DNA of 64,000 nt from an uncultured Gaiellaceae bacterium (GTDB taxonomy: Bacteria > Actinomycetota > Thermoleophilia > Gaiellales > Gaiellaceae): contig CAWGAN010000003.1 of NCBI GenBank assembly GCA_963820635.1, positions 583,459 through 647,458 on the forward strand. Reading direction: 5' to 3'. The notes beneath the pieces were generated by a model that saw only the letters and a list, made by a program, of their open reading frames with translations, was not told the DNA's origin and did no database searches. Position 1 is the stretch's first letter. Every line of letters starts with the position of its first letter. Shown here in pieces: positions 26,806-52,463 of this stretch. A program made the position numbers and the translations under genes.

Positions 26806-26809
<4 letters not shown>
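23279..26809 (+). CDS. Double zinc-ribbon / class III adenylate-guanylate cyclase / AAA (STAND-like) ATPase / TPR protein, apparent frameshifts
   Basis: [44 protein letters not shown] (zinc ribbons). [16 protein letters not shown]...[11 protein letters not shown] (cyclase). [16 protein letters not shown] and [12 protein letters not shown] (Walker A/B). A long TPR-like C-terminus follows. Frame breaks lie near 23975, 24385 and 24515. Confidence 0.8.
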
Positions 26810-29650
<2,841 letters not shown>

Positions 29651-32528: not shown

Positions 32529-33925
32529 ACGGCGAGCGCGAGGTCGGCGCCCCGCTCGCGCGCGAGCACGTCCGCAAGCGCCTCGACGCACGACCCGTAG
32601 AACAGCGTGTCCGCACCTTCTCGAAGATGCTCGAGCGCACGTTCGTGCGTCCAGGCCGGGCGGTACACGCGCTCCGAGATGAGCGCGTCGTAGACGTCGC
32701 AGACGGCCAGGATGCCCACGTCCAACGGGATCGGATCGCCCGCGACGGCGCGGCGGATAGCCCGATCCGTCGAGTCGCTCGTGGTGGCCGCGGACGAGCC
32801 GGTGCACCATCTCGGAGAACCCTCCGAGCTCGCGGAGCAGCGCGGCGCCCGAGTGGACGTGGCCCATCACGACGTGGAACTCCGCGCCCGTCAGAGGACC
32901 CGGCTTCTTGAGGATCGCGTCCGGCACCGTCAGCTTCCCGATGTCGTGGAGGAGGCCGCCGACCGCGAGGTCGCGGAGTCGCTCGGGCGCCAGTCCCAGC
33001 TCGTCGCCGACCTGCGCAGCGCGCAGTGCGACCCGGCGCGTGTGCTCCTCCGTGTACGCGTCCTTCTCGGCGAGCTCGACGAGGAGCGCACGGATGTGCG
33101 ACCCGAGGAACACCTCGGCGTCGGCCACGAGGTCGGCGCCCTTGAGATCTCCGAGCAATGGCCGCGAGCGAGCGACCCCGCGGCGCAGGTCGTGCGCGAC
33201 GGTGAAGCCCACCGCGGCGATCCCGACGATCTCGAAGCCGTGACCGAGCCACCAGCCGAGATTCCGGTAGTTGAGGAGAAGGGCTGCCGGAAGGGCCACG
33301 GCGAGCCACGCGATGCCGACGGCAACGAGGAGATCCGCACCACGCTGTGTGAGCCGATACGTGCGCAGCGCACGCCAGAAGAGCACGGAGTAGAACGCGA
33401 GCCCGGCGCACAGCACGATCCAGGCCGCGGGGCTCCGCGGACTCCGGAACCGCCGGCACCAACCCGGGCTGGGCGATCGCCGCGAAACCGAGGCCGAAGA
33501 TGAAGACGACGCCCGCCGCGAGCAGCCAGAGCAGCGGCTTGACGGCGGCGGGCCTCCGAACCGCCGAGAGCGCACCGAGCGCGAGGATCGCGCCGCCGAT
33601 CGGAAGCGTCGCGCCGCCCGTGAAGGCCGCCACGCCGATCTCCGTCGACGAACACGCCAGGCGTCGCGAGCCCGTGGAGGCAGAGCAGCGCCGCCATGAC
33701 GGAGAAGGCGCTCCCCACGAGAACGGCATAGCCGTCTCGCTGGCGCGCACCCGCGACCGTCAGTGCGACTGCGCAGACCGTCGCGACCCCCGCACCGACC
33801 GCGACCCCGGCGAAGTGGATCCAGCCGTCGATGAGGACCTTGTCGCGACCGACGAAGTGGAGAAGCGCTGCAGGCACGATCGCCGCGAACGCAGCCGCGG
33901 CGAGGAGCGGAATGCGAGTCGGCAC
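32525..33925 (-). CDS. Membrane-anchored HD-GYP phosphodiesterase-like protein, apparent frameshifts
   Basis: Multi-helix N-terminus (MPTRIPLLAAAAFAAIVPAALLHF...). HD-GYP core: HTRRVALRAAQVG...LLHDIGKLTVPDAILKKPGPLTGAEF..VMGHVHSGAALL...GHHERLDGSGYP...CDVYDALISERVYR. Confidence 0.8.
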
Positions 33926-36330: not shown

Positions 36331-36352
36331 TGTTGAGGGTTTCTTGAGCGGC
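36331..36352 (+). promoter_or_regulatory. Pair of 11-bp-phased TTGAG-type direct repeats upstream of the 36376 gene
   Basis: TGTTGAGggtt TCTTGAGcggc. The second heptamer ends 27 nt before ATG 36376. Confidence 0.5.
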
Positions 36353-36375: not shown

Positions 36376-37696
36376 ATGGCTCTGCGATTCCTCATCTACG
36401 CCGCGTTCGCGGCACTCACGATCGGCTTCGCTCTGTCGCCGCTCGAGGGTTCGAGCGGAAAGCGAGTCGAGCCGACGCCCGAGGGCCGAGCCCCGACGCG
36501 GGCGGAGCTCGTGCCGGCAGTAGAGGCCGCATTCGCGCTCGAGAGCTACGCGCCGAACGAGACGGCGAAGCTCGTCATCTCGAATCGAGCGCGGGGAATC
36601 CGGCTGCAGATCTTCCAGTCCGGTCCCGAGAGCATCGTCACGCGCAGCAATCTCACGATGAACGGCGTGCCCGTGACGGAGACCCGATCGATCGGGTCTA
36701 GCGGCGGACAGCGGGTCGTCCGTGTGCAAGTCGGCGCGTGGCCGAGCGGTCTCTACTTCGCCCGGCTACGCGCCGCCGACGGACGCGTGGGCTTCGCGCC
36801 GTTCGTAGTCCGCCCGCGCTGGCTGGGCGTACACCGAGTCGCCGTCGTCCTGCCGACCCTCACGTGGCAGGCATACAACCTCCGCGACGAAGACGGCGAC
36901 GGCATCGGCGACTCCTGGTACGGAGACTGGAAGGTGAAGTCCGTTCGGCTCGGTCGCCCGTACCTGAGCCGTGGCGTGCCGTACAACTACCGCCGGTACG
37001 ACCTTCCCTTCCTCCACTGGCTCGCGCGAACGGGGAAGGATGTCGACGTTCTCTCGCAGTCCGACCTCGAATCGGCGCGCAGTGCGAGCGTCCTCGCCTC
37101 GGCCTACGACCTAATCGTCTTCCCCGGGCACCACGAATACGTCACGCTCCGGGAGTACGACCTCGTCGAGGGCTATCGCGACCTTGGAGGGAACCTGATG
37201 TTCCTCTCCGCGAACAACTTCTTCTGGCGTGTCGAGAAGCGAGGCGACGTTGTCACGAAGACGAGGCTCTGGCGCGACCTCGGACGTCCGGAGGCAATGT
37301 TGATCGGCGTCCAGTACCTGGCCAACGGCAAGGCGCCGCGTCGCCCGTGGATCGTCCGGAGCTCCCGCGCCGGGAGCTGGATCCTCGCCGGCACCGGCCT
37401 ACGTGCCGGATCGAAGCTGGGCCGCGGGGGTGTGGAGATCGACCGGCGCTCACCCGCGTCGCCCGCGGGACTCGAGGTGGTGGCCGAGATCCCGGATCTC
37501 TTCGGCCCTGGGATGACCGCACAGATGACCTACTACGAGACGAAGGGCGGCGCGAAAGTCTTCGCCGCGGGTGCCTTCTACTTCACGCGGCTCGCGCACG
37601 TCGACACGACGACGTCGCGCATTCTCGACAACCTGTGGGCGACGCCTCGCACGCCGGTGACCGTCGTGCGCATCGGCACTAGCATCCAGCGGGTGA
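36376..37696 (+). CDS. N,N-dimethylformamidase large-subunit-like (DUF6605-type) protein; 3' end inferred
   Basis: N-terminal hydrophobic segment, then VAVVLPTLTWQAYNLRDEDGDGIGDSWYG...DLIVFPGHHEYVTLREYD...GGNLMFLSANNFFWRV. The frame runs into the next gene. A GTGA junction at 37693-37696 would be restored by one indel. Confidence 0.5.
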
Positions 37697-38417
37697 CGAG
37701 GTACGTCGGCGTCCTCGCTGTGACTGTTGCCGTCTTGGCGCTCGGATCCGCCGCAGAAGCCCAGACCGCCGCTTCGCCGACTCTCCTCTGCAAGCCGCCT
37801 GCGGGCGTGCAGAAGCTGCCGCGGACCGCCCGGCATGGCGTGATCGACCACCTGCTCCAGTACCCGGCCGTGAACCTTGCGACGCGTGCCCAGCGCGGAC
37901 GCGCACGCGGGATCCTCGGCCAGCTCGTGGCGGCCGCGGATCGAGAGCGCTGGCGAAACCCCGCCGCCGCCGGGCGTGCCGGCTACGACATGGGGACGCG
38001 ACCGCGCAAGGCAGGCGACCGGGCCGTGTACTTCTTCCACGCGGAGCGAGACCAGGAGCGCAGGCGGGGCTCGATCTTCGACGCCGCGCGCCCGAAGGCG
38101 CTCATCTACGCGAACGCTCCCGGCCGGCCGCTGATCCTCGTCGGAGCAATGTGGAGCACGCGCGACGGCGAGCTCGGGCCGACACCTGCCGGGCCGATCC
38201 TCCGCTGGCACTCCCACATCGTCTGCAAGAGCGGGGCGAAGCGCGGCCTGAAGCCACCGCCGAGCGGGACCTGCCCAGCGGGCTCGCGGCTCACCCAGGG
38301 TACGAGCGAGATGCTCCACGTCTGGTTCACCGGGACCTGCGCAGCGCGTTCGCCATCAGCGCTCCGAGGCCCGAGCTGTGCGCGGTCGAGCTCCTGCCGC
38401 GCGACTCGTGCGGCTGA
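37693..38417 (+). CDS. Secreted protein of unknown function, apparent frameshift near 38330
   Basis: VTRYVGVLAVTVAVLALGSAAEAQ signal peptide, then a Cys-containing domain (LLCKPP...HSHIVCKSG...GTCPAGS). I recognise no family. Confidence 0.4.
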
Positions 38418-38421
38418 TCGG

Positions 38422-41400
38422 CTATCCGCCCAGATAGCGCTCGCGCTCGACCTCGGTCAGCTCGCGACGCGTCCCTGCGAGCCGGCGACCGGCGAGCTCG
38501 ACGAGCTCGTCGACATCTCCACAGGGTTCGCATCGATAGGTGCGGACAGTTCCATCGGCACCACCGGTCACGATGATCCGCCCGGACGGGTCGAACGCCA
38601 CGGCGGTCACGGTTCCCTCGTGGCCCCGGAGCCGGAGGATCAACTCGCCGTCGGTGGCGTCCCAGAGGCTCGCGCGAAGCGCGGCGGTGACGAGCCAATG
38701 ACCGTCCGGGCTGAAGGCGGCGTCTCTCACCGCGGTGTTGTGCTGGAGAGCGCGAGCGAGCTCGTTTGCCGGAAGGCTCCAGATGCGGGCGACGTGGTCG
38801 AGGCTCGTCGTCGCGAGGACGGTGCCGAATGGCGAGAACGCCACGGACGTGACTCGGTCGCGGTGCCCCGTCAGCGTCTCGGCCTCACCGTCCTGCCGGA
38901 CGATCACGACCCGCCCGCGCATCGTCGCGCTGCTGCCGTCGGGGCCGGTCACCCGGCGAGGCTTCCGCCTCGGGGCGCTCTCCGTGCTCACCTCGTCTCC
39001 GGTCGCGGGGTCGAGAACGAGCTTCCTACCCTCGCTCGTCCAGACGTTCACGCGATCGTCCACCGCCAGAGCCGTCACCGGCGCGCCGACCCGAGCGAGC
39101 TCCGTCAGCTCCGGCTGGAACACGCCGTCCCAGATCCTGATCGACTCGTCCTGGCTCGCGGTCACGATCGGGCTGCCCGCCCCTCCGCTGAACGCGGCCG
39201 ACTCGACCCAGCCGCGATGTCCCGAGAGCACGAACAGCTCGTCGCCGCTCTCCGCGTGCGACACGCGCGCGGTGTTGTCCTTCCCGGTGGTGACGACGTG
39301 CTCGCCGTCGGCGCTGAACGACACGTTCTTGAGAGCGTTCGTGTGGCCGGTGAGCGCAGAGGCCAGCCCCCAGTCGGCCGTGCGCCACACGCGGCCGGTC
39401 CCGTCCGTGCTCGCGCTCGCGACGAACTTCCCGTCGGGACTGAACGCGACCCCTACCGCGTTGCCGGCGTGCTCCGTCAAGACGTGCACTCTCCGCCCGC
39501 TCTGGCCCGACCACACGCGCACCGTGTCGTCGACGCCTCCTGTCAGCACGCGTCGGTTGTCGGGCGAGATCGCGGCGGACTGCGCGCCGGGGTGTGGGTA
39601 CGTGTAGAGGGTCCTCCCGGTCGAGACCTCGACGAGGCGCACGCCACCGGGCTGGACGACTGCCACCACCGTCGCATCGGGCGAGATCGCGGCCGCCACC
39701 GCGTCGCGCGCACCGGCGAGAGTGGAGACGGCGCCGCCCGCCGTGACGACGCGCACGAGACCGTCGCTGCCCGTGATCGCGGAGGTCCCGTCGTCGGCGA
39801 ACGCCGCCCCGCGCGCCCGAGCGCCCGTCGAGAACGTGTCGACGACAGCCCGGTCGACCGGCGTCACGATCATCACCTCACCTTCCTCCGTGACCGCGAC
39901 GACCTCGTGTCCGCGCACGGTGGCAGCGAGCACCGGCGCGCCGAGCTCCACGACGGCTCGCACGCGTGACTGGAGCAGCGCGTGCCGCAGCGCCTGCTCG
40001 GACGACTCGCTCGGGACGACGCGAGCCGCCTCGCGTGCGAGGACGAGGCTGAGCTCAGGGTCGCGATCGAGCTCGGCGTCGGCGCTCGCGACGAGCTCGT
40101 TCGCCTTCGCCTCCCGCGCCTGCTCGCGCGCCTCCGTCCGCTGGGAGAGCGCGTAGACCGTCACGGCACCCATCACCGCGAGCAGGACGGCGCCCACGAC
40201 GATGATCGCGAGCAGTTGCCGATGTCGTCGGTCGGACGCCTCCTGCTGCCGTTCGAGCTCCCGCTCGGCCTCGTGACTCGCGCGCCAGGCGACCACAGGC
40301 TCCGCGAGGACGTCGTGGAAGATCTCGTAGCGGACGGCGCCGCCCTCGTCGAGTGACCGGAGGATCCTTCGATCGGCGAGGATCGCGAGTACCGGCCGAA
40401 GCTCGTCGAGCGGGACGCGCCCGAAGTCGGCGAGATCGGACAGCTCGTGGGCGATCTTCGTGCCCGACGGCGTGACGAGATGGTCGAAGAGCCGTGCGGC
40501 GATGTCCTTCTGATTGTGCGACAAGGCGTCCATGGCGCTCTCGAAGTGCTCCTCGACGATGCGCTGCGCGCCGCCCAGGCTTTCGAACGTGGACAGACGA
40601 AGGATGCTCGAGCCCGCTTTCCGCTCCTCTTCCCACAGGCGCTGCATCACGAGCTGGAGATACGGCGCCTCGATGCGCGCGGTGTCCTCGACGCCTTCGA
40701 TCGAGCCGCGTCCCGCGAGCGCGGTCTCGATCCGACCGGCGCCCACCTCGTCGAGCACGCGCTCGACGAGCTCGGGCTCGATCTCGACTCGCACCCCGGC
40801 CAGCTCGCCGTAGCGATCGACAGGCCCCACGATCGCGGCGCGCGCGGCCTGACGGTCGAGCCGATCGAGTCGTAGTGTGTTCGCGAAGAGTCCCGGCACG
40901 CGCCCGGTGAAGCGATCGAGCTTCGCCAGGGAATCCTCACGCAGCGAGACGAGCACGTTGACACGCGACTGCGCGGCGAGGATCGACGGAAGAGCCTCCG
41001 CGAAAGACCCCGGACCACTGTCGTCGGCGTGGTACAGGAAGTACTCCTCTGCCTGGTCGAGAACGAGGTAGACGTCGCGCTCCGACTGCGCGTTTCGAAG
41101 CGCCGCGACGGCGGAGCCGTTCGACGTGTCACCCGTGGCTTCCGCGACCGCCTCTGCCACACCGACGCTCGGGTCGTCGCTCCAGCTCGAGAAGACGACG
41201 ACCAGCGGCCGCTCGGGCAGAGCGCGGAGAGAGCGCGCCACTGCAGCGCCGAGCAGCGACGATTTGCCGACCCCACTCGGCCCGTAGAGGACGGTGAGCC
41301 GCGATGCGATGAGGTTCGCGACGACGATCTCGGTCTCGCGCTCGCGCCCGAAGAAGAGGAGTGCGTCGAGCTCGGAATCCTCGAAGGCGGTGAGCCCCTT

Positions 41401-41433
41401 GTACGGCGACTCGGGTATCGGGCTCTCGTTCAC
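38422..41433 (-). CDS. STAND-type P-loop NTPase / single TM helix / WD40-repeat protein (1003 aa, intact)
   Basis: GTG 41431-41433 overlaps the TGA of the upstream gene (GTGA). Walker A is LYGPSGVGKSSLL (41260-41283) and Walker B is VYLVLDQAEEYF. The hydrophobic helix LLAIIVVGAVLLAVMGAVTVYAL lies at 40150-40215. About 530 aa of WD40 units follow (LTEHAGNAVGVAFSPDGKFVASASTDGTGRVW, LTGHTNALKNVSFSADGEHVVTTGKDNTARV, LTGHRDRVTSVAFSPFGTVLATTSLDHVARIW, LRGHEGTVTAVAFDPSGRIIVTGGADGTVRTY). Confidence 0.85.
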   Translation of the reverse strand: MNESPIPESPYKGLTAFEDSELDALLFFGRERETEIVVANLIASRLTVLYGPSGVGKSSLLGAAVARSLRALPERPLVVVFSSWSDDPSVGVAEAVAEATGDTSNGSAVAALRNAQSERDVYLVLDQAEEYFLYHADDSGPGSFAEALPSILAAQSRVNVLVSLREDSLAKLDRFTGRVPGLFANTLRLDRLDRQAARAAIVGPVDRYGELAGVRVEIEPELVERVLDEVGAGRIETALAGRGSIEGVEDTARIEAPYLQLVMQRLWEEERKAGSSILRLSTFESLGGAQRIVEEHFESAMDALSHNQKDIAARLFDHLVTPSGTKIAHELSDLADFGRVPLDELRPVLAILADRRILRSLDEGGAVRYEIFHDVLAEPVVAWRASHEAERELERQQEASDRRHRQLLAIIVVGAVLLAVMGAVTVYALSQRTEAREQAREAKANELVASADAELDRDPELSLVLAREAARVVPSESSEQALRHALLQSRVRAVVELGAPVLAATVRGHEVVAVTEEGEVMIVTPVDRAVVDTFSTGARARGAAFADDGTSAITGSDGLVRVVTAGGAVSTLAGARDAVAAAISPDATVVAVVQPGGVRLVEVSTGRTLYTYPHPGAQSAAISPDNRRVLTGGVDDTVRVWSGQSGRRVHVLTEHAGNAVGVAFSPDGKFVASASTDGTGRVWRTADWGLASALTGHTNALKNVSFSADGEHVVTTGKDNTARVSHAESGDELFVLSGHRGWVESAAFSGGAGSPIVTASQDESIRIWDGVFQPELTELARVGAPVTALAVDDRVNVWTSEGRKLVLDPATGDEVSTESAPRRKPRRVTGPDGSSATMRGRVVIVRQDGEAETLTGHRDRVTSVAFSPFGTVLATTSLDHVARIWSLPANELARALQHNTAVRDAAFSPDGHWLVTAALRASLWDATDGELILRLRGHEGTVTAVAFDPSGRIIVTGGADGTVRTYRCEPCGDVDELVELAGRRLAGTRRELTEVERERYLGG

Positions 41434-43043
41434 GCGGCCTCGAGCCGTCGCTCGAGCAGCTCGACGTACGACAACGGATCCACGTCGAGCGCGGCGACGT
41501 CGAACCGGCGCCAGAACGCCTGCGCGAGCGGGCTCGGCGAGCGCTGCACCGCCCACGAGCGGTACGCGACGGGTCGCTCGCCCCAGATGCGGTTGAGGAT
41601 GAGTCGCAGGTTCCAGTCGGCCATCTCGTAGCCGAGGAAGAGGAAGTGGCTGCGGCGAAGCCTGGCCGCGAGCGCGACCGGCACGACGGCAGTCAGCTCG
41701 GAGCGGCCGAGGTAGTCGATGTAGTCGTCCTCGGTGATGACGAAGCTCTCCCACTCGCGCTCGGGCAGCGGATCGACGGCGCCGTGGAGCTTCAGCAGGA
41801 TCGTGCGCCGGTCGAGGTCGAGCTCCGTCGCGTACGTGTTCGGAACGTCGATCGGGCGCGGCGGCTCTCCCGGCGGTCGGTGCCAGAAGCGCCCGCGGTG
41901 AGTCCCGGTTGCGACGTAGGCCACGATGTCGAGCTCCTCGCCGGCCTCTTCGAAGGCGCGCTCGAGGGCGAGGTCGTAGTTCGTGGTCACGATGAGCTGG
42001 TGGGGCGCACCGTGCTCTCGTAGGAGCGTCGGAAGCCGGGCGAGGAACCGCTGGAGCGGTCCCGGTTCCACCGCCGCCTCGAACCGGGTGTGAAGTTCGT
42101 CGTAGAGCGGGCCTGATCCCTGCATCGTCGCGACGTACTGGGAGACGCGCGCGAGGTCGACCGGGCGATCGTCCGGAACTGCAAATGCCCGGGCGAGATG
42201 CTCCGCGAGATCGCCCGCCCCGTCGAGACCGATGACGGGCACCACCCGGCCCGAGAGAAGAGCCTTGACGATCTCCCCCTCCTCGTCGGCGGGCGCCGGC
42301 CCGCCGGAGACAGTGAGCCCCGACTCGTGGCGAAGGATCTCCGCCTGGAGCCGCTTGAGCTCCGGGCCTGGCTCGATCCCGAGCTCGTCGAGGAAGCGGG
42401 CGCGAGCGTCGTGGTACACCTCGAGAGCTTCTGCTTGCCGACCCGCGCGATACAGCGCGAGCATGAGCTGCCTGCGAAACGTCTCACGAAGCGGGTGGTC
42501 GCCGGCGAGTCCCTCGAGCTCGCCGATCACGTCGCCGTGCCGCCCGAGCTCGAGCTCGGCGTCGATCCGCTCGCCGATCACGACGAGTCGCAGCTCCTCG
42601 AGCCGTCGGATCTCCGCCTGTGCGAAGTCGTCGAACGCGAACTCCACGAGCGCGGATCCACGCCACAGCGCGAGCGCGGACTGCAGCAGCGCGCTCCGCT
42701 CCTCTGCAGGAAGCCGCCGCGCGTCGGCGAGCGCCTGCTCGAACCGACGCGCATCGATCTGGTCAGCTCCGGCGTTGAGCACGTAGCCGGGTGCGCGGGT
42801 GTCGAGGATGTCGGTTCCCAGCGCCCGGCGCAGGCGTCCGACGGCGTTCTGGAGCGACGCAGTGGCCGTCTTCGGCGCCTCCTCGCCCCAGAGCGAGTCG
42901 ATGAGCCGATCGGTCGGGACGACCCTGCCGGCCTCGAGAACGAGGATGGCGAGGAGCGCGCGCTGCTTGGGGCCTCCGAGCGCGACATGCCCGGTCTCGT
43001 CTGAGACCTCGAGCGGGCCGAGTATCCGGAACTCGAGCGTCAC
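41430..43043 (-). CDS. SARP-type DNA-binding regulator (OmpR-like wHTH + BTAD) fused to a SIR2_2 (SIR2-like NADase/deacetylase) domain (537 aa, intact)
   Basis: VTLEFRILGPLEVSDETGHVALGGPKQRALLAILVLEAGRVVPTDRLIDSLWG... (wHTH). ALALWRGSALVEF...RRQLMLALYRAGRQAEALEVYHDARARFLDELGIEPGPELKRLQ (BTAD). SIR2_2 motifs are QLIVTTNYDLALERAF (TTNYD at 41973-41987), ILLKLHGAVD, FVITEDDYIDYL and HFLFLGYEMADWNLRLIL. An alternative GTG lies at 43097. Confidence 0.85.
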   Translation of the reverse strand: MTLEFRILGPLEVSDETGHVALGGPKQRALLAILVLEAGRVVPTDRLIDSLWGEEAPKTATASLQNAVGRLRRALGTDILDTRAPGYVLNAGADQIDARRFEQALADARRLPAEERSALLQSALALWRGSALVEFAFDDFAQAEIRRLEELRLVVIGERIDAELELGRHGDVIGELEGLAGDHPLRETFRRQLMLALYRAGRQAEALEVYHDARARFLDELGIEPGPELKRLQAEILRHESGLTVSGGPAPADEEGEIVKALLSGRVVPVIGLDGAGDLAEHLARAFAVPDDRPVDLARVSQYVATMQGSGPLYDELHTRFEAAVEPGPLQRFLARLPTLLREHGAPHQLIVTTNYDLALERAFEEAGEELDIVAYVATGTHRGRFWHRPPGEPPRPIDVPNTYATELDLDRRTILLKLHGAVDPLPEREWESFVITEDDYIDYLGRSELTAVVPVALAARLRRSHFLFLGYEMADWNLRLILNRIWGERPVAYRSWAVQRSPSPLAQAFWRRFDVAALDVDPLSYVELLERRLEAA

Positions 43044-43106
43044 GGGCGACCTTAGAACGCCGCGCAGGCTGTGTCCAGCATCCGGGCCACAGATCACTCG
43101 AATGCG

Positions 43107-43128
43107 CTCAAGACCCGCTCAAAGAGTG
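43107..43128 (-). promoter_or_regulatory. Pair of 11-bp-phased TTGAG-type repeats facing the SARP-SIR2 operon
   Basis: Read on the minus strand: CTTTGAGcggg TCTTGAG. The proximal heptamer lies 63 nt upstream of GTG 43043. Confidence 0.5.
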
Positions 43129-43172
43129 GTTAGCGAGCTGTTGGCCACCCGTTGCCGGCCGGTTGGAGACCC
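43129..43172 (+). promoter_or_regulatory. Four 11-bp-phased GTTAGC-type direct repeats facing the deacetylase gene
   Basis: GTTAGCGagct GTTGGCCaccc GTTGCCGgccg GTTGGAGaccc. They are in continuous 11-bp register with the two TTGAG-type units at 43107-43128. ATG 43190 lies 21 nt after the last heptamer. Confidence 0.55.
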
Positions 43173-43189: not shown

Positions 43190-43987
43190 ATGACTACCTC
43201 ATTCGCTCGTCTCGTCCGGCGGCTCGGACTCGCAGCCGCTATTGCGCTCGCCGCGGCGGGTGCCTCGACGGCCGACTCCACTCGCGGGCTGGATTCCGCC
43301 GCGGCCGCAGTCACCCCGACGACGCCTGTTCCGATCCTGATGTACCACGTGATCGCCGATCCTCCGCCGGGAGCCCCGTACCCGGAGCTCTTCGTCAGCG
43401 AGGCTGACTTCGCAGACCAGATGCGGTGGCTCGCGCGCCACGGATATCAGGCGGTTACGCAGCGCGATCTGTGGCACCACTGGCACCGCGGCGCCGCTCT
43501 CCCGCCGCGGCCGATCGTGCTCTCGTTCGACGACGGCTATCGCAGTGTTGCCGACGCGGCGTTCCCGCACATGCAACGGCGCTCCTGGCCCGGAGTCCTG
43601 AACCTGACCGTCAAGAACCTTCGCGTCTCGGGCGGACTGAGCGAGTCGAGAGTGCGGAGGCTGATCTCGGCCGGGTGGGAGCTCGCCTCCCACACGCTCA
43701 CGCATCCTGACCTCACGACTCTCAGTGGGCGTGCACTCGCGCGTGAAGTGAGCCGCTCGAGGATCGAGCTCCGATCGCGCTTCGGCGTCCCCGTCGACTT
43801 CTTCTGCTACCCGGCGGGACGGTACGACTCGAGCGTCATCCGGGCGGTTCGTCGCGCTGGGTATCGCGGCGCGACGACGACGGTGGAGGGCCTCGCACGG
43901 CCCGGCAAGCCGTACGAGCTTCGGCGCGTCCGGGTGAACGGAAGCGACGGCGTGGACGAGCTCGCCGCCAAGCTGCGTACGAGTTGA
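43190..43987 (+). CDS. Secreted polysaccharide deacetylase (NodB-homology/CE4) family protein
   Basis: MTTSFARLVRRLGLAAAIALAAAGAS signal peptide. Motifs are PILMYHVI, IVLSFDDGYRSV and LASHTLTHPDL. The ORF track starts at an upstream TTG (43163). Confidence 0.8.
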   Translation: MTTSFARLVRRLGLAAAIALAAAGASTADSTRGLDSAAAAVTPTTPVPILMYHVIADPPPGAPYPELFVSEADFADQMRWLARHGYQAVTQRDLWHHWHRGAALPPRPIVLSFDDGYRSVADAAFPHMQRRSWPGVLNLTVKNLRVSGGLSESRVRRLISAGWELASHTLTHPDLTTLSGRALAREVSRSRIELRSRFGVPVDFFCYPAGRYDSSVIRAVRRAGYRGATTTVEGLARPGKPYELRRVRVNGSDGVDELAAKLRTS

Positions 43988-44003
43988 GCAGGCCTTGAGC
44001 GAC
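43982..44003 (+). promoter_or_regulatory. Pair of 11-bp-phased TTGAG-type repeats upstream of a small ORF
   Basis: AGTTGAGcagg CCTTGAGcgac. The first heptamer contains the deacetylase TGA. ATGs follow at 44007 and 44022. Confidence 0.45.
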
Positions 44004-44587: not shown

Positions 44588-47500
44588 CTACACCAATGCC
44601 ACGTCGTCCAGAAGAGCGCGCAGTTGGCGGAGTCCAACGACGTTACCCTTGGCCTCGTACAGCTCGAGTGCGTCGACGTAGGCAGCGCGCGCGTCTTCCG
44701 TTCGCCCTGCACGTGTGAGGATCTCACCCAGATCGCGGCACGCTTTCGCATGCTGATTGAGCGCATCGGTCGTCTCCGCAAGCTCGACGGCGGCGGCCGC
44801 CAGCTCCATGGCATCCTCGAGACGGTCAAGATGCGCCAGGACCTTTGCCCGAACGGGCATCCAGAGCACACGGGCGTCAACGTCATCGGCGGCCGAGTGC
44901 CGCTCTGCGACATCGGTCCAGGCCGAAGCTTCGTCGAAGCGCGCCAGCCGGTAGAGCGCCTCGGCACGGTCGCCCGCGCGGCTTGCGAGATGGCTGAACC
45001 CCCGAGTCTGCTCTAGCTCGCCACAGAGCCAGCGGAGCGTGGCTTCCGCCGCGATGACATCGCCCGCGAGGAGCTCGACATCTCCGAGGATCGCCGCGCT
45101 GAACGTCGCCGCCGAGGCCCGCTGTCCCAGCTCATCGAACGTCGCCCTGGCCGACGAGACGAGCGAGCGAGCTCGGTCGAAATCGCCCGTCTGCGCAACG
45201 AGACCGCCCAGGTACACCTCGATATTGGCTTGTCCGTATCGGTTCAGTGCCTCCGTCTCAATCAGCGCGTCACAGCGATCGATGGCATCCGCCACGCGTG
45301 TGGACCCGTAGTACAGCGCCTTCGCGATCTCGCCGGTCGCTGTCGAAGTCGGCCAGGTCGAACGCATGTAGTGGGTGAGTGCGCGCTCCGCCGCCGTCAG
45401 TCGCACGTCGTGATGGCCGCGATGCCCTCCCTCGATCCAACCAGCCAGAAGCAGCGCTCGGCCAACTGACCTGTCGTCACCTGCAGCCTCGAACACCGGG
45501 ATCGCGTCCGCCGTGATGGAGAGCAGGTCGTCGCCGGTGTCCGACCGAAGATGGATCCCCACATACGCGCCCTCCATCCGCGCATGGAGCTCGGTCGTCC
45601 TGTCGCCCACGGCGGTCGCGAGCCCGATGGCGCGCTCCACCGACGCGAGCGATGCCTCGAGATCTCCTCCTGCCCGCAGAGCGATCGCAAGCTCGGTCAG
45701 GAGCTCAGCCTCGAGCGCCGAAGGCAACGGGATCGCGGTCGCACGGCGAAGCAGGCCGATCGCCGCCGGTACGTCGCCTCGCTTCGCTGCACGGACACCG
45801 GCTTCACCCAGGCGGCGGCCCGCGTCGTCCGCGAGGCGCTCGGTCCTTCGATCCGATTCGCCAAGCTCGCTCCGCAGCCGGTACGCCCGCTCGAGGTGGT
45901 GGCCGACGAACTCGTCGAGCTCGGTGAGCTCCGCGTGGGCCTCCTCCAGCCTGTCCGCGTAGCGCTCGTGGAGGTCGGCGCGGAGCCGTTTTGGTGCCGC
46001 GCGATAGACCGCCTCTTGCACGAGGACGTGACGGAAGCTGAACGCCGTCTCGCCGCGTGGCCGTACAAACCCGCGATCGGAAAGAGTGCGCAGGTGAGAG
46101 TCGGCGGTCGGAGTCGCCTCCGGCTCGAGGAGCGATGTCAGGTCCTCGGCACTGAAGTCCTTGCCGATCACGGCGCCGCGTTCGAGCACCGCGCGCTCGC
46201 CGGGGCCGAGGCGGTCGAGACGTGCAGCGAGCAGCGCCTGGATCGTCTCCGGCAGCACACGCTCGGCGAGGCCACCTTCCAGCGCGAGGGCGAGGAGCTG
46301 TTCGAGGAAGAGGGGGTTTCCCTCCGCGGTCTCGGCGATGCGTACGCGCTGGTCCGACTCGAGCGTCGTCCCACCGAGGCCCTCGAGCAGCGCGTCCGTC
46401 TCGGCGGCGGAGAGCGTGTCGAGGAGAATCCTGTCCGCATTCGCGCGTCCCTCGAGGAACGTCGGCCGCTCCTCGAGGAGCTCCTCACGCGCGAGACACA
46501 CCACTGAGATCGCACCCGTCCCCTTGTCCACGAGGTGCTCGAGGAGCTCGAGGAACGTCGGCTCAGCCCAATGGACATCGTCGAAGACGAGGACGAGCGG
46601 CCGCTCGCGCGCGCTCGCTTCGCAGAACCGGCGGAAGAGCCAGGCGAGCTCGGGCGCGGGCGGCGGCGTCTCGGCGTCGAGCGAGGCGAGAACGGCGCTG
46701 CGCTCCTCGCTCGCTCCCGCGCGGTCGAGAACTTCGCGCAGCGGCCAGTACGTGATGCCCTCGCCGTACGAGAGACATCGGCCCCAGAGGGTCGTCACGC
46801 CCTTCGCGCGCCGGGTCAGCTCGGCGGCGAGGCGCGACTTCCCGACGCCGGGCGAGCCGACGACGACCGCGACGCGCATGACTGCACCGTCTCTGGAGCG
46901 CTTGAGCGTCCGTCGAAGCGCCGCGAGCTCGCGCTTGCGGCCGACGAGGCGCGCATCCTGCCGCTGCTGGAAGGCCGGCGCGATCGGGCTCAGCTCGAGT
47001 AGCCGATACGCGAGCACCGGCTCGCGCTTGCCCTTGATCGCGACCTCGCCCAGCGGATCCAGCACGGCGACGTGGTCGATCAGCCGCGCGGCGAGCGCGC
47101 CCACGACGATCTCGTTCGCGGCGGCGGCGGCTTCGAGCTTCGCGGCGATCCCGACCGCCTCGCCCGTGACGAGGCGCTGCCGAGCCTCGGTGGGGGTCGC
47201 GACGACCTCGCCCGCCTCGATCCCGATGCGGATCTCGAGCCCTACCGCGTGCTGTCGCGCGAGCTGCTCGTTGAGCGCCGCGATGCCGACGCGAATGTCG
47301 AGCGCCGCGCGGGCCGCGCGCAGCGCGTCGTCCTCGTGCGAGACGGGGATTCCGAACGCAGCCATGACCGCGTCGCCCGCGTACTTCTCCACCGAGCCGT
47401 CATGGCGCGCGATCGCCGCCGAAACCGTCTCGAAGTAGCTCCGCAGTACGGTGCCGAGCGCCTCCGGATCGAGCGCCTCCGCCAGAGCCATCGACTCGAC

Positions 47501-48340
47501 CACGTCGACGAAGAGGATCGTGACGAGCCGGCGGAACTGCATCGCCGGCCGCGCGAGCGGAGCCTCCTCTAGGAGCAGCGACTCGTCCTGGCGCAGGATC
47601 GCGGCCTCGAGCTCGCGCAGCTCGGGCCCGGGGTCGATCCCGAGCTCCTCGACGAGTGTCTCGCGTGCGGTGCGGTAGGCGGCGAGCGCGTCCGCCTGGC
47701 GACCCGAGCGGTAGAGCGCGAGCATGAGCTGCGCGCGAGGCCGCTCGCGAAGAGGCTGAGCGGCGACAAGCGCCTCGAGCTCGGAGACGAGCTCGGCGTG
47801 GCGGCCGAGCGCGAGGTCGGCTTCGATCCGCTCCTCGACGGCGACCGTGCGAAGCTCCTCGAGCCGGGCGATCTCGGTCTGCGCGAACGGCTCGTACAGG
47901 AAATCGGCGAGCGCGGGACCGCGCCAGAGCGCGAGCGCCTCACGGAGCGCACCTTCGGCCGCAGCAGGGTCCCCGCCCTCGAGAGCCGCCCGTCCGTCCT
48001 GCGCGAGACCGGCGAAACGGTGGACGTCGACGCGCTCAGGGGCGAGCTCGAGCTCATAGCCGGGCGCGCGTGCGGCGATCACGGGGCCGAGCGCCTTGCG
48101 GAGCTGCGAGACGTAGACCTGGACGGCGTGCGCGGCGGTCTCGGGTGGGTCGCCGGGCCATAGCGCCTCCACGAGCTTGTCGACGGAGACGACACGGCCC
48201 GGCTCGATTGCGAGCACGGCGAGGAGCGCGCGCGGCTTCGGCCCTCCGAGTGTGGCGGGGACGCCGTCCCGCTCGGCCTCGATAGGGCCGAGGAGCCGTA
48301 CGTCGAGCTCTGGGGTGCCTGCCCCGCTCGCTCCGTCCAT
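44588..48340 (-). CDS. SARP (wHTH+BTAD) / class III adenylate-guanylate cyclase / AAA-STAND ATPase / TPR protein (1250 aa, intact)
   Basis: LDVRLLGPIEAERDGVPATLGGPKPRALLAVLAIEPGRVVSVDKLVEALWPG (wHTH). RAQLMLALYRSGRQADALAAYRTARETLVEELGIDPGPELRELE (BTAD). VTILFVDVVESMALAE...GDAVMAAFGIP (cyclase). VVVGSPGVGKSRLAAEL and LVLVFDDVHWAE (Walker A/B). A long TPR-like C-terminus follows. Confidence 0.88.
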   Translation of the reverse strand: MDGASGAGTPELDVRLLGPIEAERDGVPATLGGPKPRALLAVLAIEPGRVVSVDKLVEALWPGDPPETAAHAVQVYVSQLRKALGPVIAARAPGYELELAPERVDVHRFAGLAQDGRAALEGGDPAAAEGALREALALWRGPALADFLYEPFAQTEIARLEELRTVAVEERIEADLALGRHAELVSELEALVAAQPLRERPRAQLMLALYRSGRQADALAAYRTARETLVEELGIDPGPELRELEAAILRQDESLLLEEAPLARPAMQFRRLVTILFVDVVESMALAEALDPEALGTVLRSYFETVSAAIARHDGSVEKYAGDAVMAAFGIPVSHEDDALRAARAALDIRVGIAALNEQLARQHAVGLEIRIGIEAGEVVATPTEARQRLVTGEAVGIAAKLEAAAAANEIVVGALAARLIDHVAVLDPLGEVAIKGKREPVLAYRLLELSPIAPAFQQRQDARLVGRKRELAALRRTLKRSRDGAVMRVAVVVGSPGVGKSRLAAELTRRAKGVTTLWGRCLSYGEGITYWPLREVLDRAGASEERSAVLASLDAETPPPAPELAWLFRRFCEASARERPLVLVFDDVHWAEPTFLELLEHLVDKGTGAISVVCLAREELLEERPTFLEGRANADRILLDTLSAAETDALLEGLGGTTLESDQRVRIAETAEGNPLFLEQLLALALEGGLAERVLPETIQALLAARLDRLGPGERAVLERGAVIGKDFSAEDLTSLLEPEATPTADSHLRTLSDRGFVRPRGETAFSFRHVLVQEAVYRAAPKRLRADLHERYADRLEEAHAELTELDEFVGHHLERAYRLRSELGESDRRTERLADDAGRRLGEAGVRAAKRGDVPAAIGLLRRATAIPLPSALEAELLTELAIALRAGGDLEASLASVERAIGLATAVGDRTTELHARMEGAYVGIHLRSDTGDDLLSITADAIPVFEAAGDDRSVGRALLLAGWIEGGHRGHHDVRLTAAERALTHYMRSTWPTSTATGEIAKALYYGSTRVADAIDRCDALIETEALNRYGQANIEVYLGGLVAQTGDFDRARSLVSSARATFDELGQRASAATFSAAILGDVELLAGDVIAAEATLRWLCGELEQTRGFSHLASRAGDRAEALYRLARFDEASAWTDVAERHSAADDVDARVLWMPVRAKVLAHLDRLEDAMELAAAAVELAETTDALNQHAKACRDLGEILTRAGRTEDARAAYVDALELYEAKGNVVGLRQLRALLDDVALV

Positions 48341-48405: not shown

Positions 48406-48427
48406 TCTTGAGCCGTTCTTGAGAGGG
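48406..48427 (+). promoter_or_regulatory. Pair of identical 11-bp-phased TCTTGAG repeats upstream of the 127-aa ORF
   Basis: TCTTGAGccgt TCTTGAGaggg. The second heptamer ends exactly 50 nt before ATG 48474. Weaker TTCTCA/TGTCTG units lie upstream at about 48373-48405. Confidence 0.55.
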
Positions 48428-48473: not shown

Positions 48474-48857
48474 ATGACTGCCCTCGTCGTCACCGTCTCG
48501 CCCGCGAACGGAATGTCCGACAAGGAGGGACGCATCGGGATCTTCCCAGGAGGGGCGACGACGACGATGTACCCGGCGAGCACGCCGTTCTGGGTGGGCT
48601 ACGGCTTTGCAGCCGACTCGGTCGGAGGCGTCGATCTCGAGGTCGACACGACGCGGTTCGAGCTCGACGTCGACGGGGAGCCCGTCTCGATGCTCACCGA
48701 CGTGCACACGGAGTCCGGGCTTCCCGTGCGCAAGACGAACATCGCCGAGTTTCCCGACGGCCTTCCCGCCGGCTGGCACGACTTCACCGGGCGCTGGTAC
48801 GACGGCGGGCGCCTGATCCTCTCGAGCCGCGCGGCGATCCAGTTCGTCGAGCCTTGA
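48474..48857 (+). CDS. Hypothetical 127-aa protein
   Basis: Intact ORF with a GGAGG RBS: MTALVVTVSPANGMSDKEGRIGIFPGGATTTMYPASTPFWVGYGF... I see no signal peptide and no recognised family. Confidence 0.5.
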   Translation: MTALVVTVSPANGMSDKEGRIGIFPGGATTTMYPASTPFWVGYGFAADSVGGVDLEVDTTRFELDVDGEPVSMLTDVHTESGLPVRKTNIAEFPDGLPAGWHDFTGRWYDGGRLILSSRAAIQFVEP

Positions 48858-48895
48858 GCGTTTCTTGAGCGTCGTCTCGCACGGTTCTCAACACC
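48852..48895 (+). promoter_or_regulatory. Four 11-bp-phased units (two TTGAG-type, two TCTC-type) upstream of the 159-aa ORF
   Basis: CCTTGAGcgtt TCTTGAGcgtc GTCTCGCacgg TTCTCAAcacc. The last heptamer ends exactly 50 nt before ATG 48942. The first unit contains the upstream TGA. Confidence 0.5.
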
Positions 48896-51871: not shown

Positions 51872-52463
51872 TCAAGAAGCCTGAGTCAGCGTAGCCATCA
51901 CCTCTGCCACCCACGCGTCGAGCTGCTCGGGGGTGCCGGTGTTGACGTACGTGAAGTCGGCACGCTTCGCCTTCTCGCGGTCCGGCAGCAGCCGTGCCTC
52001 GCGGTCGTCCGCGCGTCCCCGGCGAGCCTCGCGGAGCTTGGACGGGCGCCGTGACCACGACCACCTTGTCGAAGCGCGTCTCCGCTCCGACCTCGTAGAG
52101 AAGCGGCACCTCGGTGACGCAGACCTGCGGCGGGCTCGGAAGGTCCGCGAGCTGCTCGCGCCAGGTCATGTACTCGCGCGAGACGAGCGGGTGGAGGAGC
52201 TTCTCGAGGAAGTCGAGCGCTTCGCGGTCCCGGAACACACGGAACGCGATGCGCTCGCGGTCGGGTGCGCCGTCCTCGCCGAGGATCTCCTCGCCGAGGC
52301 GCTCGACGAGCGCGCGCTTGACCTCCGGGTCGGTCGCGAGGAGGTGGTGGACGATCTCGTCGCTCGACACGGTCGCCGCGCCGTGCCTGCGGAACGACTC
52401 GAGCGCCGTCGACTTGCCGGCTCCGATCCCGCCGGTGATCGCGACCGCGAGCGGGCGGGTCAC
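51872..52463 (-). CDS. coaE: Dephospho-CoA kinase, one apparent frameshift at 52044-52046
   Basis: VTRPLAVAITGGIGAGKSTALESFRRHGAATVSSDEIVHHLL...VTEVPLLYE...FDKVVVVTAP. After removing one base the frame continues SKLREARRGRADDREARLLPDREKAKRADFTYVNTG... Confidence 0.85.

Follow-up and report, generated by a model that had tools for sequence, protein, structure and literature searches.

A coupled SARP-SIR2 and nSTAND1-WD40 gene pair of Gaiellales that looks like an immune-type module turned signalling pathway

Within a stretch of 64,000 nucleotides from a soil actinobacterium of the Gaiellaceae (hereafter, the window), we analysed two adjacent genes, one encoding a SARP-SIR2 protein (gene 1) and the other a membrane-anchored nSTAND1 NTPase with a WD40 sensor (gene 2), and found that they look like an immune-type module turned signalling pathway. 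Tentatively, and with a little less than an even chance of being right, we read the pair as an Avs-like cassette of SIR2 and STAND that now serves as a pathway from a transmembrane receptor to transcription, in which SIR2 would act as the coupling domain and its NADase activity would be optional. The features of the two genes are as follows:

41430..43043, minus strand: gene 1, SARP-SIR2 protein, 537 aa from GTG 43043 (ORF and translation, Pfam, homologues)
42777..42974, minus strand: Trans_reg_C, OmpR-type winged helix of gene 1 (Pfam PF00486, E 9.5e-11; Foldseek)
42333..42758, minus strand: BTAD domain of gene 1 (Pfam PF03704, E 9.6e-43; NCBIfam AfsR/SARP models)
41433..42251, minus strand: SIR2_2-type domain of gene 1 (Pfam PF13289, E 4.4e-22; PDB matches; Foldseek)
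41979-41981, minus strand: SIR2 Asn codon, in TTNYD (sequence)
41784-41786, minus strand: SIR2 His codon, in LKLHG (sequence)
41430..41433, minus strand: GTGA stop/start overlap of gene 1 and gene 2 (sequence and conservation)
38422..41433, minus strand: gene 2, nSTAND1 NTPase, TM helix and WD40, 1003 aa (ORF, Pfam, orthologues)
40246..41406, minus strand: nSTAND1 NTPase module of gene 2, residues 10-396 (Pfam PF20703, E 1.4e-47)
41260-41283, minus strand: Walker A GPSGVGKS of gene 2 (sequence, conserved in orthologues)
40156..40212, minus strand: single predicted transmembrane helix of gene 2, residues 408-426, after an Arg-rich segment (hydropathy)
38425..39816, minus strand: helical linker and WD40 beta-propeller, the fast-evolving sensor region of gene 2 (Pfam WD40, PDB WD40 matches)

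Both ORFs of the first-pass annotation were confirmed, and so was the stop/start overlap from which it had claimed translational coupling: in GCCGCGTGAACG, gene 1 ends with the TGA at 41430-41432 and gene 2 begins with the GTG at 41431-41433. Of 83 related loci, 65 share this 4-nt RTGA overlap, more than chance would give, and it is also found in cassettes with a standalone SIR2 or a kinase-SIR2 gene; as read from the sequence, the two genes are coupled through it. Gene 1 could alternatively start at an upstream GTG (43097), yielding 555 aa, and its homologues range from 537 to 555 aa. GTG 43043 is the likelier start, since an AAGG Shine-Dalgarno sequence lies 6 nt 5' of it (43050-43053) and many homologues have exactly 537 aa. 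Orthologues of gene 2 span 953-1289 aa.

The adjacency of the two genes, whose conservation the first-pass annotation had left to be checked, held in 83/83 related Gaiellales loci, and uvrB lies downstream of the pair in 57 of them. The neighbours are non-defence genes, in which PADLOC detected generic cyclase homology only, and the viral contigs searched contained no relative of the pair. These loci, neighbours and contigs do not display the patchy, island-type distribution typical of defence genes, and, as judged from the genomes compared, the pair is a core, vertically inherited Gaiellales operon rather than a defence-island gene.

The Pfam families Trans_reg_C, BTAD, SIR2_2, nSTAND1 and WD40 were all found in the two proteins. 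In gene 1, an OmpR-type winged helix is followed by BTAD, the arrangement of the SARP family, as assigned by Pfam, NCBIfam and Foldseek, the last of which matched the SARP domain of AfsR (8k60/8hvr) at 40% identity and also EmbR. The remainder of the protein has a SIR2_2 (DHS-like Rossmann) fold by both Pfam and Foldseek; Pfam and the TTNYD and LKLHG motifs agree with the SARP plus SIR2_2 make-up claimed earlier, the two residues being Asn355 and His420 when counted from GTG 43043, or Asn373 and His438 from GTG 43097. Sequence matches in the PDB (ThsA, DSR2 and KomC) align both motifs, and an AF2 model (pLDDT 69) matched KomC, ThsA, DSR2, SIR2-HerA and EfAvs5 in Foldseek with E-values of 1e-7 to 1e-4, such that the nearest folds to the SIR2 domain are those of defence NADases.

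Gene 2 matches nSTAND1 over positions 1-363 of the 379 in the model. The P-loop STAND NTPase with WD40 repeats that had been proposed was thus upheld by Pfam and by conserved motifs, Walker A (GPSGVGKS) and Walker B (LVLDQAEE) being retained in orthologues as GPSGVGKS and hhhDQ(A/F)EE. Intact Walker motifs and a C-terminal repeat sensor (Pfam WD40, E 9.5e-56) are features that the protein shares with antiviral STAND proteins. Of 54 full-length sequences (the window and 53 orthologues), 53 have their hydropathy maximum at one and the same place, and the 15 residues before the helix carry on average 5.8 K/R, compared to 3.0 after it; by the positive-inside rule only, the WD40 sensor is therefore probably on the outer side of the membrane. 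Median identity to orthologues was 86% for SIR2, 65% for nSTAND1 and 39% for WD40, versus 87% for UvrB, making SIR2 the most conserved segment of the operon, evolving at a pace like that of UvrB.

The earlier proposal of a sensor/switch joined to an NAD-consuming effector held in its first part, a sensor/switch plus SIR2, and needs changing in its second; the expected conservation of the catalytic residues was seen for one of the two. While the His was retained in 69 of 72 Gaiellales orthologues, the Asn was kept in 41 and replaced in 31 (by Arg, Ser, Ala, Gly or His). Clades lacking the Asn still possess an intact and coupled gene 2, and so NAD consumption, as far as these sequences tell, is excluded as the pair's conserved function. 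In the window's own subclade the Asn was present in 120/120 homologues, and SIR2 catalysis is thus probably under selection there. Raw counts that ignore phylogeny gave both residues in 169 of 174 standalone SIR2 proteins and in 18 of 40 kinase-SIR2 fusions, and, among 56 further SARP fusions, an Asn that was kept in 2 and replaced in 54, with the His mostly retained.

The first-pass annotation had not recognised the arrangement as any named system, and PADLOC likewise named none for the pair: gene 1 gave weak ThsA/SIR2-domain matches (the best at 4.8e-14 over 76 residues) and gene 2 nothing meaningful. The arrangement is nevertheless not unique. Related members of the SIR2 subfamily lie directly upstream of nSTAND1 genes whatever their N-terminus (none, SARP, kinase or HTH), as observed in 4/4 contexts of standalone SIR2, 2/2 of Pkinase-SIR2 and 1/1 of HTH_31-SIR2; direct nSTAND1-HEAT-SIR2 fusions exist, and fusions of the subfamily to kinase, CHAT protease and nSTAND1 domains occur as well. 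By its domain organisation, the window pair is the SARP-fused branch of this wider cassette, a SIR2_2 subfamily upstream of a repeat-bearing nSTAND1 NTPase.

The intergenic sequence upstream of gene 1 carries the following elements:

43129..43166, minus strand: four direct repeats, core (C/T)NAAC, spaced by exactly 11 nt (pattern search)
43091..43122, minus strand: two TTGAGCG boxes, 8 nt and TGATCT (a -10-like hexamer), in phase with the array (sequence)
43116-43122 and 43105-43111, minus strand: the TTGAGCG boxes (sequence)

The four-repeat array has a single match in the window, with 0.00 expected. Of the 80 upstream regions of orthologues, 58 had at least three phased cores, while spacings of 9, 10, 12 and 13 nt were found in 0-1 regions and the 11-nt phasing in 0.3% of shuffles. 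The TTGAGCG boxes and the -10-like element are conserved in the Gaiellaceae subclade. In SARP promoters, direct repeats are spaced by 11 or 22 bp and the one at the 3' end lies 8 bp from the -10 element (PMC10936776); the array and boxes fit this geometry as candidate sites for the SARP of gene 1. A SARP-cyclase-AAA-TPR gene is located 1.5 kb away, and TTGAGCG pairs also occur upstream of many unrelated genes.

Under the receptor-to-transcription reading, gene 2 would be a membrane-anchored NLR-like receptor whose hypervariable WD40 domain, probably on the outer face, binds a rapidly varying cue, upon which the cytoplasmic nSTAND1 NTPase would form an NTP-dependent oligomer. This oligomer would engage the SIR2 of the co-translated partner, a conserved coupling and oligomerisation module, and the partner's N-terminal domain would set the output, here a SARP activator acting on the 11-bp-phased repeats of the divergent promoter region of its own gene, and perhaps on nearby TTGAGCG-pair promoters too. 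Since SIR2 keeps its Asn and His in the window's subclade, the pathway may there have NAD+ hydrolysis as an additional output, dispensable in sister clades. This reading draws on the invariant adjacency and frequent RTGA overlap, on the same nSTAND1 partnership with other SIR2 N-termini, on catalytic residues that track architecture while Asn-less clades keep the coupled gene 2, and on a SIR2 that evolves as slowly as UvrB next to a less conserved nSTAND1 and a far less conserved WD40 region. It is further favoured by the conserved TM helix with its positive-inside bias, the likeness of the SARP domain to that of AfsR, the phased repeats conserved across the order, the TTGAGCG boxes and -10-like hexamer in the layout of the SARP rule, and the core position by uvrB among non-defence genes. 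Several observations weigh against it: the invariant Asn of the window's subclade points to selected catalysis; the outside location of WD40 comes from the positive-inside rule only, and one related cassette (L084) is without a TM helix; the repeats could serve another SARP, such as the one 1.5 kb off, and TTGAGCG pairs are widespread; the architecture counts ignore phylogeny; and hypervariable sensors are a hallmark of genuine immune receptors too.

Among known systems, Avs5 (AVAST type 5, SIR2-nSTAND3-TPR; EfAvs5, PDB 9jap, and PaAvs5; domain make-up described in bioRxiv 10.1101/2025.07.08.663546) shares with the pair a SIR2_2-type domain, a novel STAND and a C-terminal repeat sensor. Avs5 is, however, one chain with an nSTAND3 NTPase and a TPR/Sel1 sensor, whereas the window system consists of two genes with an nSTAND1 NTPase and a WD40 sensor behind a TM helix; Avs sensors are cytoplasmic, while this one is predicted outside the membrane, and the pair differs in its extra SARP module, its core-genome location and an Asn that is dispensable in many orthologues. 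In Avs the effector is N-terminal in the same chain, but here nSTAND1 takes up gene 2 from residue 10 onwards and the effector is encoded by a gene of its own; the PADLOC Avs models did not match the pair.

AfsR-type large SARPs (SARP-NOD-TPR, Streptomyces coelicolor) have in common with gene 1 the OmpR-type wHTH and BTAD, and with the pair a STAND NTPase tied to a SARP and 11-bp-phased repeats, the last 8 bp from a -10-like hexamer. SARP activity in AfsR is gated by the NOD and TPR domains through ATP (PMC10936776). There the STAND lies within the SARP chain and the sensor is TPR; here SIR2_2 occupies the place of NOD-TPR, the sensor is WD40, and the STAND is a separate membrane-anchored protein of the nSTAND1 clade, such that no NOD (NB-ARC/AAA_16-type) plus TPR chain is formed.

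The nSTAND1 family (PF20703) takes its definition from predicted counter-invader systems (Kaur, Iyer, Burroughs, Aravind 2021, eLife; PMC8195603), in which an effector gene lies beside an NTPase with super-structure-forming repeats, a logic that the window pair follows; that paper lists SIR2 as an NAD+-targeting effector in a neighbouring class of systems, not specifically in nSTAND1-centred ones. Those systems couple effector and NTPase via a shared adaptor (EAD or Death-like), whereas Pfam detected only SARP and SIR2 in gene 1 and nSTAND1 and WD40 in gene 2, leaving room for a divergent adaptor; from this domain content, SIR2 itself seems to take the adaptor's part. The text of PMC8195603 and PMC7159879 contains no mention of a SARP/BTAD fusion, and its passages on "transmembrane" or "WD40" describe no NTPase-TM-WD40 receptor.

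ThsA (Thoeris), DSR2, KomC (Kongming) and SIR2-HerA are NADases whose activation depends on assembly; they share the SIR2_2 fold with gene 1 and align with it at the TTNYD Asn and at the (K)xHG His. According to the titles of their PDB entries, these proteins assemble into helical filaments, dimers, tetramers or dodecamers. Their partners (SLOG/TIR, HerA, KomA/B) are absent from the window pair, and the Asn is not conserved across its orthologues. Thoeris combines a SLOG/STALD-bearing ThsA with a TIR protein, ThsB; of the ThsA models only the SIR2 part matched (residues 429-504), and the pair and its scanned neighbours yielded neither a TIR nor a SLOG domain.

One rival reading is a genuine split-Avs5-like abortive-infection or antiviral module, in which nSTAND1-WD40 would sense infection, SIR2 would deplete NAD+ and SARP would only autoregulate the operon. 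We consider this rather unlikely, though a serious competitor: the SIR2 is nearest to defence proteins by both sequence and fold, its Asn and His are intact in the window (the Asn in all 120 close homologues), the sensor is hypervariable, standalone SIR2 and nSTAND1-WD40 relatives share conflict-system architecture, and nSTAND1 itself comes from predicted counter-invader systems. Against it stand the persistence of the pair where the Asn is lost, the fixed position by uvrB among non-defence genes, a sensor predicted outside the membrane, the lack of a PADLOC system match or of copies in viral contigs, and a SIR2 that evolves at a housekeeping-like rate. The first-pass annotation had offered either abortive infection or a transcriptional switch; of these, an NAD-/STAND-linked transcriptional switch fits better and a pure abortive-infection module less well.

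A specific version of the receptor-to-transcription reading is an envelope- or competitor-sensing circuit, whose receptor would detect envelope damage or foreign cells and whose SARP would control a secreted peptidoglycan hydrolase, the divergent M23 peptidase, along with other wall-modifying genes; in our judgement it has a small chance of being correct. Of 83 loci, 39 have a divergent M23 gene less than 400 nt from gene 1, over the whole divergence range, and where divergent it shares the intergenic region that carries the phased repeats. M23 genes also adjoin kinase-SIR2 cassettes. Around the pair in the window there are genes for small secreted proteins and for a polysaccharide deacetylase, and of the window's 7 TTGAGCG-pair sites 5 fall in the segment 36.3-48.9 kb. 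Yet this window has no M23 gene, though repeats and operon persist, and the widespread TTGAGCG pairs may belong to another regulator. Least probable of all is an NAD+/ADP-ribose-sensing transcription factor, in which SIR2 would be a ligand-binding (or protein-deacylase) module tuning SARP to redox/NAD status and gene 2 a scaffold or chaperone: the highly conserved SIR2, whose His and overall pocket are conserved even without the Asn, the SARP domain and the promoter-type repeats agree with it, but it leaves unexplained why gene 1 is coupled in every case to a STAND NTPase of active type, with conserved Walker A/B, why WD40 is hypervariable and why the SIR2 subfamily is found in fusions to kinase, CHAT protease and nSTAND1.

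Finally, the first-pass annotation had pointed to the two genes being intact amid frame-broken housekeeping genes, to which we attach no weight. Frameshifts occur in coaE, an HD protein, an M32 peptidase, a 243-aa gene and uvrA; these breaks look like assembly indels rather than pseudogenisation, since all of the genes are intact in relatives, several of the frameshifts are grouped at 31-34 kb, the gene 1 match itself is split in a 99%-identical assembly (L060), and the closest relatives are metagenome-assembled genomes of one MAG series (isolate names MFD...).

Reading of the ORFs, Pfam searches and a motif check bore out the first-pass description of the locus as two long, overlapping ORFs, since the ORFs, their 4-nt overlap, the domains and the motifs were all present:

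41430-43097 (from an upstream GTG) or 41430-43043 (from GTG 43043), minus strand: gene 1, a long ORF encoding the SARP-SIR2 protein
38422-41433, minus strand: gene 2, a long ORF encoding the nSTAND1-TM-WD40 protein

GTG 43043 is the likelier start of gene 1, because an AAGG Shine-Dalgarno sequence precedes it by 6 nt and 537 aa is the length of many homologues. The two genes overlap by 4 nt, the TGA of the first running into the GTG of the second (GCCGCGTGAACG). Pfam assigned Trans_reg_C, BTAD and SIR2_2 domains to gene 1, which carries the TTNYD and LKLHG motifs and matched NCBIfam only in its AfsR/SARP part. Gene 2 was assigned nSTAND1 (residues 10-396) and WD40 domains; it contains Walker A (GPSGVGKS) and Walker B (LVLDQAEE) motifs and, right behind the NTPase module, a single hydrophobic helix (residues 408-426). 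No DNA-level tandem repeats were found in the WD40 region of gene 2, which is therefore without the high internal conservation typical of fungal NLR repeats, and Rfam and tRNA scans of the whole window gave no match. Past the last WD40 blade, the C-terminal tail of gene 2 (38425-38540, minus strand) holds a C-x-x-C in YRCEPCGDVDELVELAGRRL...TEVERERYL. Spurious run-on ORFs are common in DNA of 70% G+C, which is about the content of the window, and a 1197-aa ORF at 36376-39969 (plus strand) was dismissed as an artefact: just its first ~420 codons match a DMFA2_C-like gene, and the remainder runs through the neighbouring gene region and then antisense to gene 2.

The AlphaFold2 model of gene 1 had a mean pLDDT of 69, with the SIR2 core mostly at 70-90. 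Foldseek against the PDB matched its N-terminal half to the AfsR SARP domain in RNA-polymerase complexes (8k60, 8hvr; 40% identity) and to EmbR, and its C-terminal half to the defence NADases KomC, ThsA, DSR2, SIR2-HerA and EfAvs5. A PDB sequence search aligned the motifs holding the catalytic Asn (TTNYD) and His (LKLHG) with those of ThsA, DSR2 and KomC, and found no solved structure related by sequence to the nSTAND1 module of gene 2.

The first-pass annotation had further set the intact pair against frame-broken housekeeping genes nearby, a contrast that did not hold. The following genes, a 243-aa gene among them, are frameshifted in the window relative to intact orthologues in related MAGs:

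26806-29650: uvrA
31038-32682: M32 peptidase gene
32528-33913: HD-domain protein gene
37699-38411: a further frameshifted gene
51884-52463: coaE

Several of these breaks lie close together, at 31-34 kb of the window, and in a 99% identical assembly (L060) the match is split within gene 1 itself. Most likely they are assembly indels in a metagenome-assembled genome and not pseudogenes, so the intactness of the pair is no sign of selection.

The nearest relatives of the window are metagenome-assembled Gaiellaceae genomes (Thermoleophilia, Actinomycetota), several of them from one MAG series with isolates named MFD.... We scanned one genome per species with a six-sequence SIR2 alignment (A2), which took the place of a 37-sequence alignment (A1) too diverse for a genome scan, and obtained 541 SIR2-domain relatives; the best 80 of the 541, with identities of 59-99%, came from MAGs labelled Gaiellaceae, Gaiella, Thermoleophilia or, more broadly, Actinomycetes/Actinomycetota. 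The two genes proved to be neighbours throughout: in 83 of 83 related Gaiellales loci the SIR2 ORF has a SARP N-terminus and an nSTAND1 gene comes directly after it, with WD40 following nSTAND1 wherever the contig reaches far enough. The RTGA stop/start overlap is kept in 65 of the 83, and loci without it mostly have aberrant ORF lengths suggestive of frameshifts. In 57/83 loci a co-oriented uvrB gene is found a few kb downstream, many other contigs being short, and in two long contigs the pair is flanked by rpsA-coaE and uvrB. A scan of viral contigs returned no relative of the pair. Judged by this order-wide synteny, the pair is an old operon, inherited vertically at a stable chromosomal site, and not a mobile defence-island gene.

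Searching the SIR2 region alone against 1.84 billion representative proteins (E <= 1e-30) matched 663 clusters, the majority of them standalone SIR2 proteins of ~320 aa. Other members carry SARP, Ser/Thr kinase, HTH_31 or CHAT-TPR modules at the N-terminus, nSTAND1-HEAT-SIR2 fusions also occur, and metagenomic proteins supply rare architectures: SARP+Pkinase+SIR2 (P0418, 832 aa), SARP-SIR2-guanylate cyclase (P0488, 751 aa) and Pkinase-SIR2-TIR (P0466, 781 aa). In every readable context the SIR2 gene immediately precedes an nSTAND1 gene, usually with the 4-nt overlap seen in the window, whether the SIR2 is standalone (4/4 contexts), fused to a kinase (2/2, upstream of nSTAND1-TM-WD40) or fused to an HTH (1/1; a metagenome scan for HTH-SIR2 relatives gave mostly generic HTH matches, a single locus, L089, being informative). 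Of the three standalone-SIR2 cassettes with readable DNA, two have the TM helix and one, L084, lacks it. Since nSTAND1 follows SIR2 in every readable context, the unvarying core of these cassettes is, on genomic grounds, the SIR2 subfamily plus nSTAND1, and the nSTAND1-SIR2 fusions provide Rosetta-stone evidence suggesting that the two act jointly. Two genes downstream of one kinase-SIR2 + nSTAND1 cassette (L087 8908-9549, minus strand) there is a Nudix/NrtR-type regulator, a single case that may be coincidence; this family comprises ADP-ribose-responsive regulators of NAD metabolism.

Divergence differs greatly between the parts of the locus. Median identities to the window, taken across 28 well-covered loci and across the subset of 11 loci with UvrB at 90% or more, were:

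UvrB: 87% (28 loci), 94% (11 loci)
SIR2: 86% (28 loci), 89% (11 loci)
SARP: 70% (28 loci), 80% (11 loci)
nSTAND1: 65% (28 loci), 70% (11 loci)
WD40: 39% (28 loci), 40% (11 loci)

The WD40 sensor is thus hypervariable, down to generic WD40 similarity in all except the nearest relatives, as would be expected of a receptor that keeps pace with a variable ligand. The TM helix occupies the same position in 53 of 54 full-length gene 2 sequences (the window and 53 orthologues), and the 15 residues before it contain on average 5.8 K/R, vs 3.0 in the 15 residues after it. Reading this bias by the positive-inside rule, we infer a cytoplasmic NTPase, with the WD40 propellers on the outer side of the membrane; the TM-less relative L084 suggests that the SIR2/nSTAND1 family can also operate wholly inside the cell.

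The first-pass annotation had inferred an NAD-consuming effector from the SIR2 domain with its catalytic Asn and His. Conservation holds for the His, kept in 69 of 72 full-length Gaiellales orthologues, and for the Asn in the window and 120 of 120 close homologues, but the Asn is replaced in 31 of the 72 (Arg 18, Ser 9, Ala 2, Gly 1, His 1), the replacements spanning whole clades in which gene 2 is still full-length and coupled. Retention in the other architectures was as follows:

Standalone SIR2: Asn and His kept in 169/174
Further SARP fusions: Asn in 2/56, His in 56/56
Kinase-SIR2 fusions: Asn and His kept in 18/40
HTH-SIR2 fusions: Asn in 0/3
nSTAND1-SIR2 fusions: Asn and His kept in 4/9

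The state of these residues appears to follow architecture, being conserved where SIR2 is the sole possible output and often lost where another output domain is present, a direction that is clear though the counts are phylogenetically non-independent. Among Gaiellales orthologues, mean column conservation is 0.83 for SIR2 vs 0.70-0.72 for the SARP domains. Because SIR2 is the slowest-evolving portion of the operon despite the Asn losses, its conserved role must, by this argument, be something besides NAD+ hydrolysis, and docking to, or co-assembly with, the nSTAND1 NTPase is the simplest candidate. The main rival to a signalling role is an abortive-infection module resembling a split Avs5, in which the SARP would be self-regulating; Avs5 itself is SIR2-nSTAND3-TPR (bioRxiv 10.1101/2025.07.08.663546). 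This rival is weakened by the clades that lack Asn, by the location in the core genome and by the prediction that the sensor faces outward, but it is still plausible for the window's genome, because there both Asn and His are intact.

The 146-bp intergenic region between gene 1 and the divergent gene contains, in order:

43129-43166, intergenic, upstream of gene 1: four direct repeats, core (C/T)NAAC, at a spacing of exactly 11 nt
43105-43122, minus strand: two TTGAGCG boxes in phase with the (C/T)NAAC array, followed after 8 nt by TGATCT

The four-repeat pattern has one match in the window (0.00 expected). Of 80 orthologous upstream regions, 58 have three or more phased cores and 46 have four or more, vs 0-1 regions at control spacings of 9, 10, 12 or 13 nt and 0.3% of shuffled sequence (three or more cores). 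In SARP promoters the direct repeats are set 11 or 22 bp apart, and 8 bp separate the 3' repeat from the -10 element (PMC10936776), a rule that the TTGAGCG pair upstream of gene 1 fits exactly as a putative site. Around the operon, neither an intrinsic terminator nor a promoter of the sigma-70 consensus was detected. TTGAGCG pairs with this downstream arrangement also lie upstream of many other genes in the related loci: CTTGAGCG-N3-CTTGAGCG pairs stand ~8 nt upstream of an nAnnnT hexamer, mostly ~25-70 nt upstream of the start codons of unrelated genes. The window has seven such pairs with at most two mismatches (1.0 expected), five of them within 36.3-48.9 kb:

36333-36350, plus strand: TTGAGCG-type pair
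43105-43122, minus strand: TTGAGCG-type pair
43984-44001, plus strand: TTGAGCG-type pair
48408-48425, plus strand: TTGAGCG-type pair
48854-48871, plus strand: TTGAGCG-type pair

Two conserved small genes without Pfam matches, both syntenic in L001 and L003, lie downstream of such pairs:

48474-48857, plus strand: small gene, 127 aa
48942-49421, plus strand: small gene, 159 aa, signal-peptide-like N-terminus

In Gaiellaceae the TTGAGCG pairs may represent a large SARP-type promoter class or regulon, with several SARP proteins as candidate binders, so they cannot be assigned securely to gene 1's own SARP. In 39 of 83 loci (L001 8955-9917, minus strand; L003 9359-9916, minus strand; 37 others) an M23 peptidase gene lies divergent from gene 1 within 400 nt, the repeat-bearing region being common to both, and M23 genes also adjoin the kinase-SIR2 cassettes in L087 and L088. 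The gene is absent from the window, where a polysaccharide deacetylase gene (43190-43987) adjoins gene 1 instead; the M23 gene may be a regulated output gene lost from this genome. A deletion fusing the M23 5' end to the deacetylase gene was rejected, the comparison being without similarity.

STAND/NLR-type NTPases in combination with SIR2 NADases are established antiviral modules. Under a signalling role, gene 2 would be an NLR-type membrane receptor that, on NTP-dependent assembly, engages gene 1 through its SIR2 domain, and the SARP moiety of gene 1 would give a transcriptional output at the phased repeats, with NAD+ hydrolysis a possible second output in the window's subclade; that a SIR2-mediated tetramer would suit the four-repeat array is speculation. 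More broadly, and as a tentative reading that we consider rather doubtful in full, this SIR2 subfamily would be a general coupling domain linking nSTAND1 receptors, often membrane-anchored with outward hypervariable WD40, to swappable outputs (a SARP/HTH transcription factor, a Ser/Thr kinase, a CHAT protease or, if standalone, NAD+ depletion); the Gaiellales operon would be a pathway of surface receptor, NLR-type switch and transcription factor derived from an immune cassette, which may control the secreted M23 peptidoglycan hydrolase and neighbours upon foreign cells, phage or envelope damage.

The subfamily, bound to nSTAND1 while its N-terminal partner changes and its Asn decays, would form a natural series from suicide-type effector to signalling adaptor. 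If correct, this would amount to a bacterial transmembrane NLR-like receptor whose output is directly transcriptional, with AfsR and MalT as conceptual parallels, to a non-catalytic role for a SIR2 domain, and to a way into gene regulation in Gaiellales, which are abundant in soil but rarely cultured. The case also cautions against labelling a SIR2 + STAND gene pair as defence by default. The components and the SIR2 + STAND logic are already known from Avs5, from the predicted conflict systems within which nSTAND1 was defined (PMC8195603) and from AfsR, a SARP gated by its own STAND module (PMC10936776). PADLOC gave no system call for the pair, in line with the first-pass view that it matches no named system, and literature text searches (Aravind-laboratory papers, a 2026 STAND survey and wider) returned no account of a SARP-SIR2 or SIR2/nSTAND1-TM-WD40 pair. 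What appears to be new is the obligate SIR2-nSTAND1 partnership with interchangeable N-terminal outputs, together with the apparent loss of the catalytic Asn where SIR2 is fused, the membrane anchor, the pair's fixed place in the core genome and the conserved SARP-type cis element. The pair makes a coherent and testable example of how an immune-type module could be put to use in signalling, in which we infer all functional steps.

A second SARP gene lies 1.5 kb from the pair and is syntenic in several relatives:

44588-48340, minus strand: large SARP gene, 1250 aa, with SARP, class III nucleotide cyclase, AAA_16 and TPR domains

Its cyclase domain gives generic matches to Pycsar cyclase models, and beyond generic cyclase homology in the SARP-cyclase-AAA-TPR protein PADLOC found no match among the genes neighbouring the pair. 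A further cyclase/AAA region, at ~23495-25297 of the window, shares 32-41% identity with the orthologous large SARP of L001.
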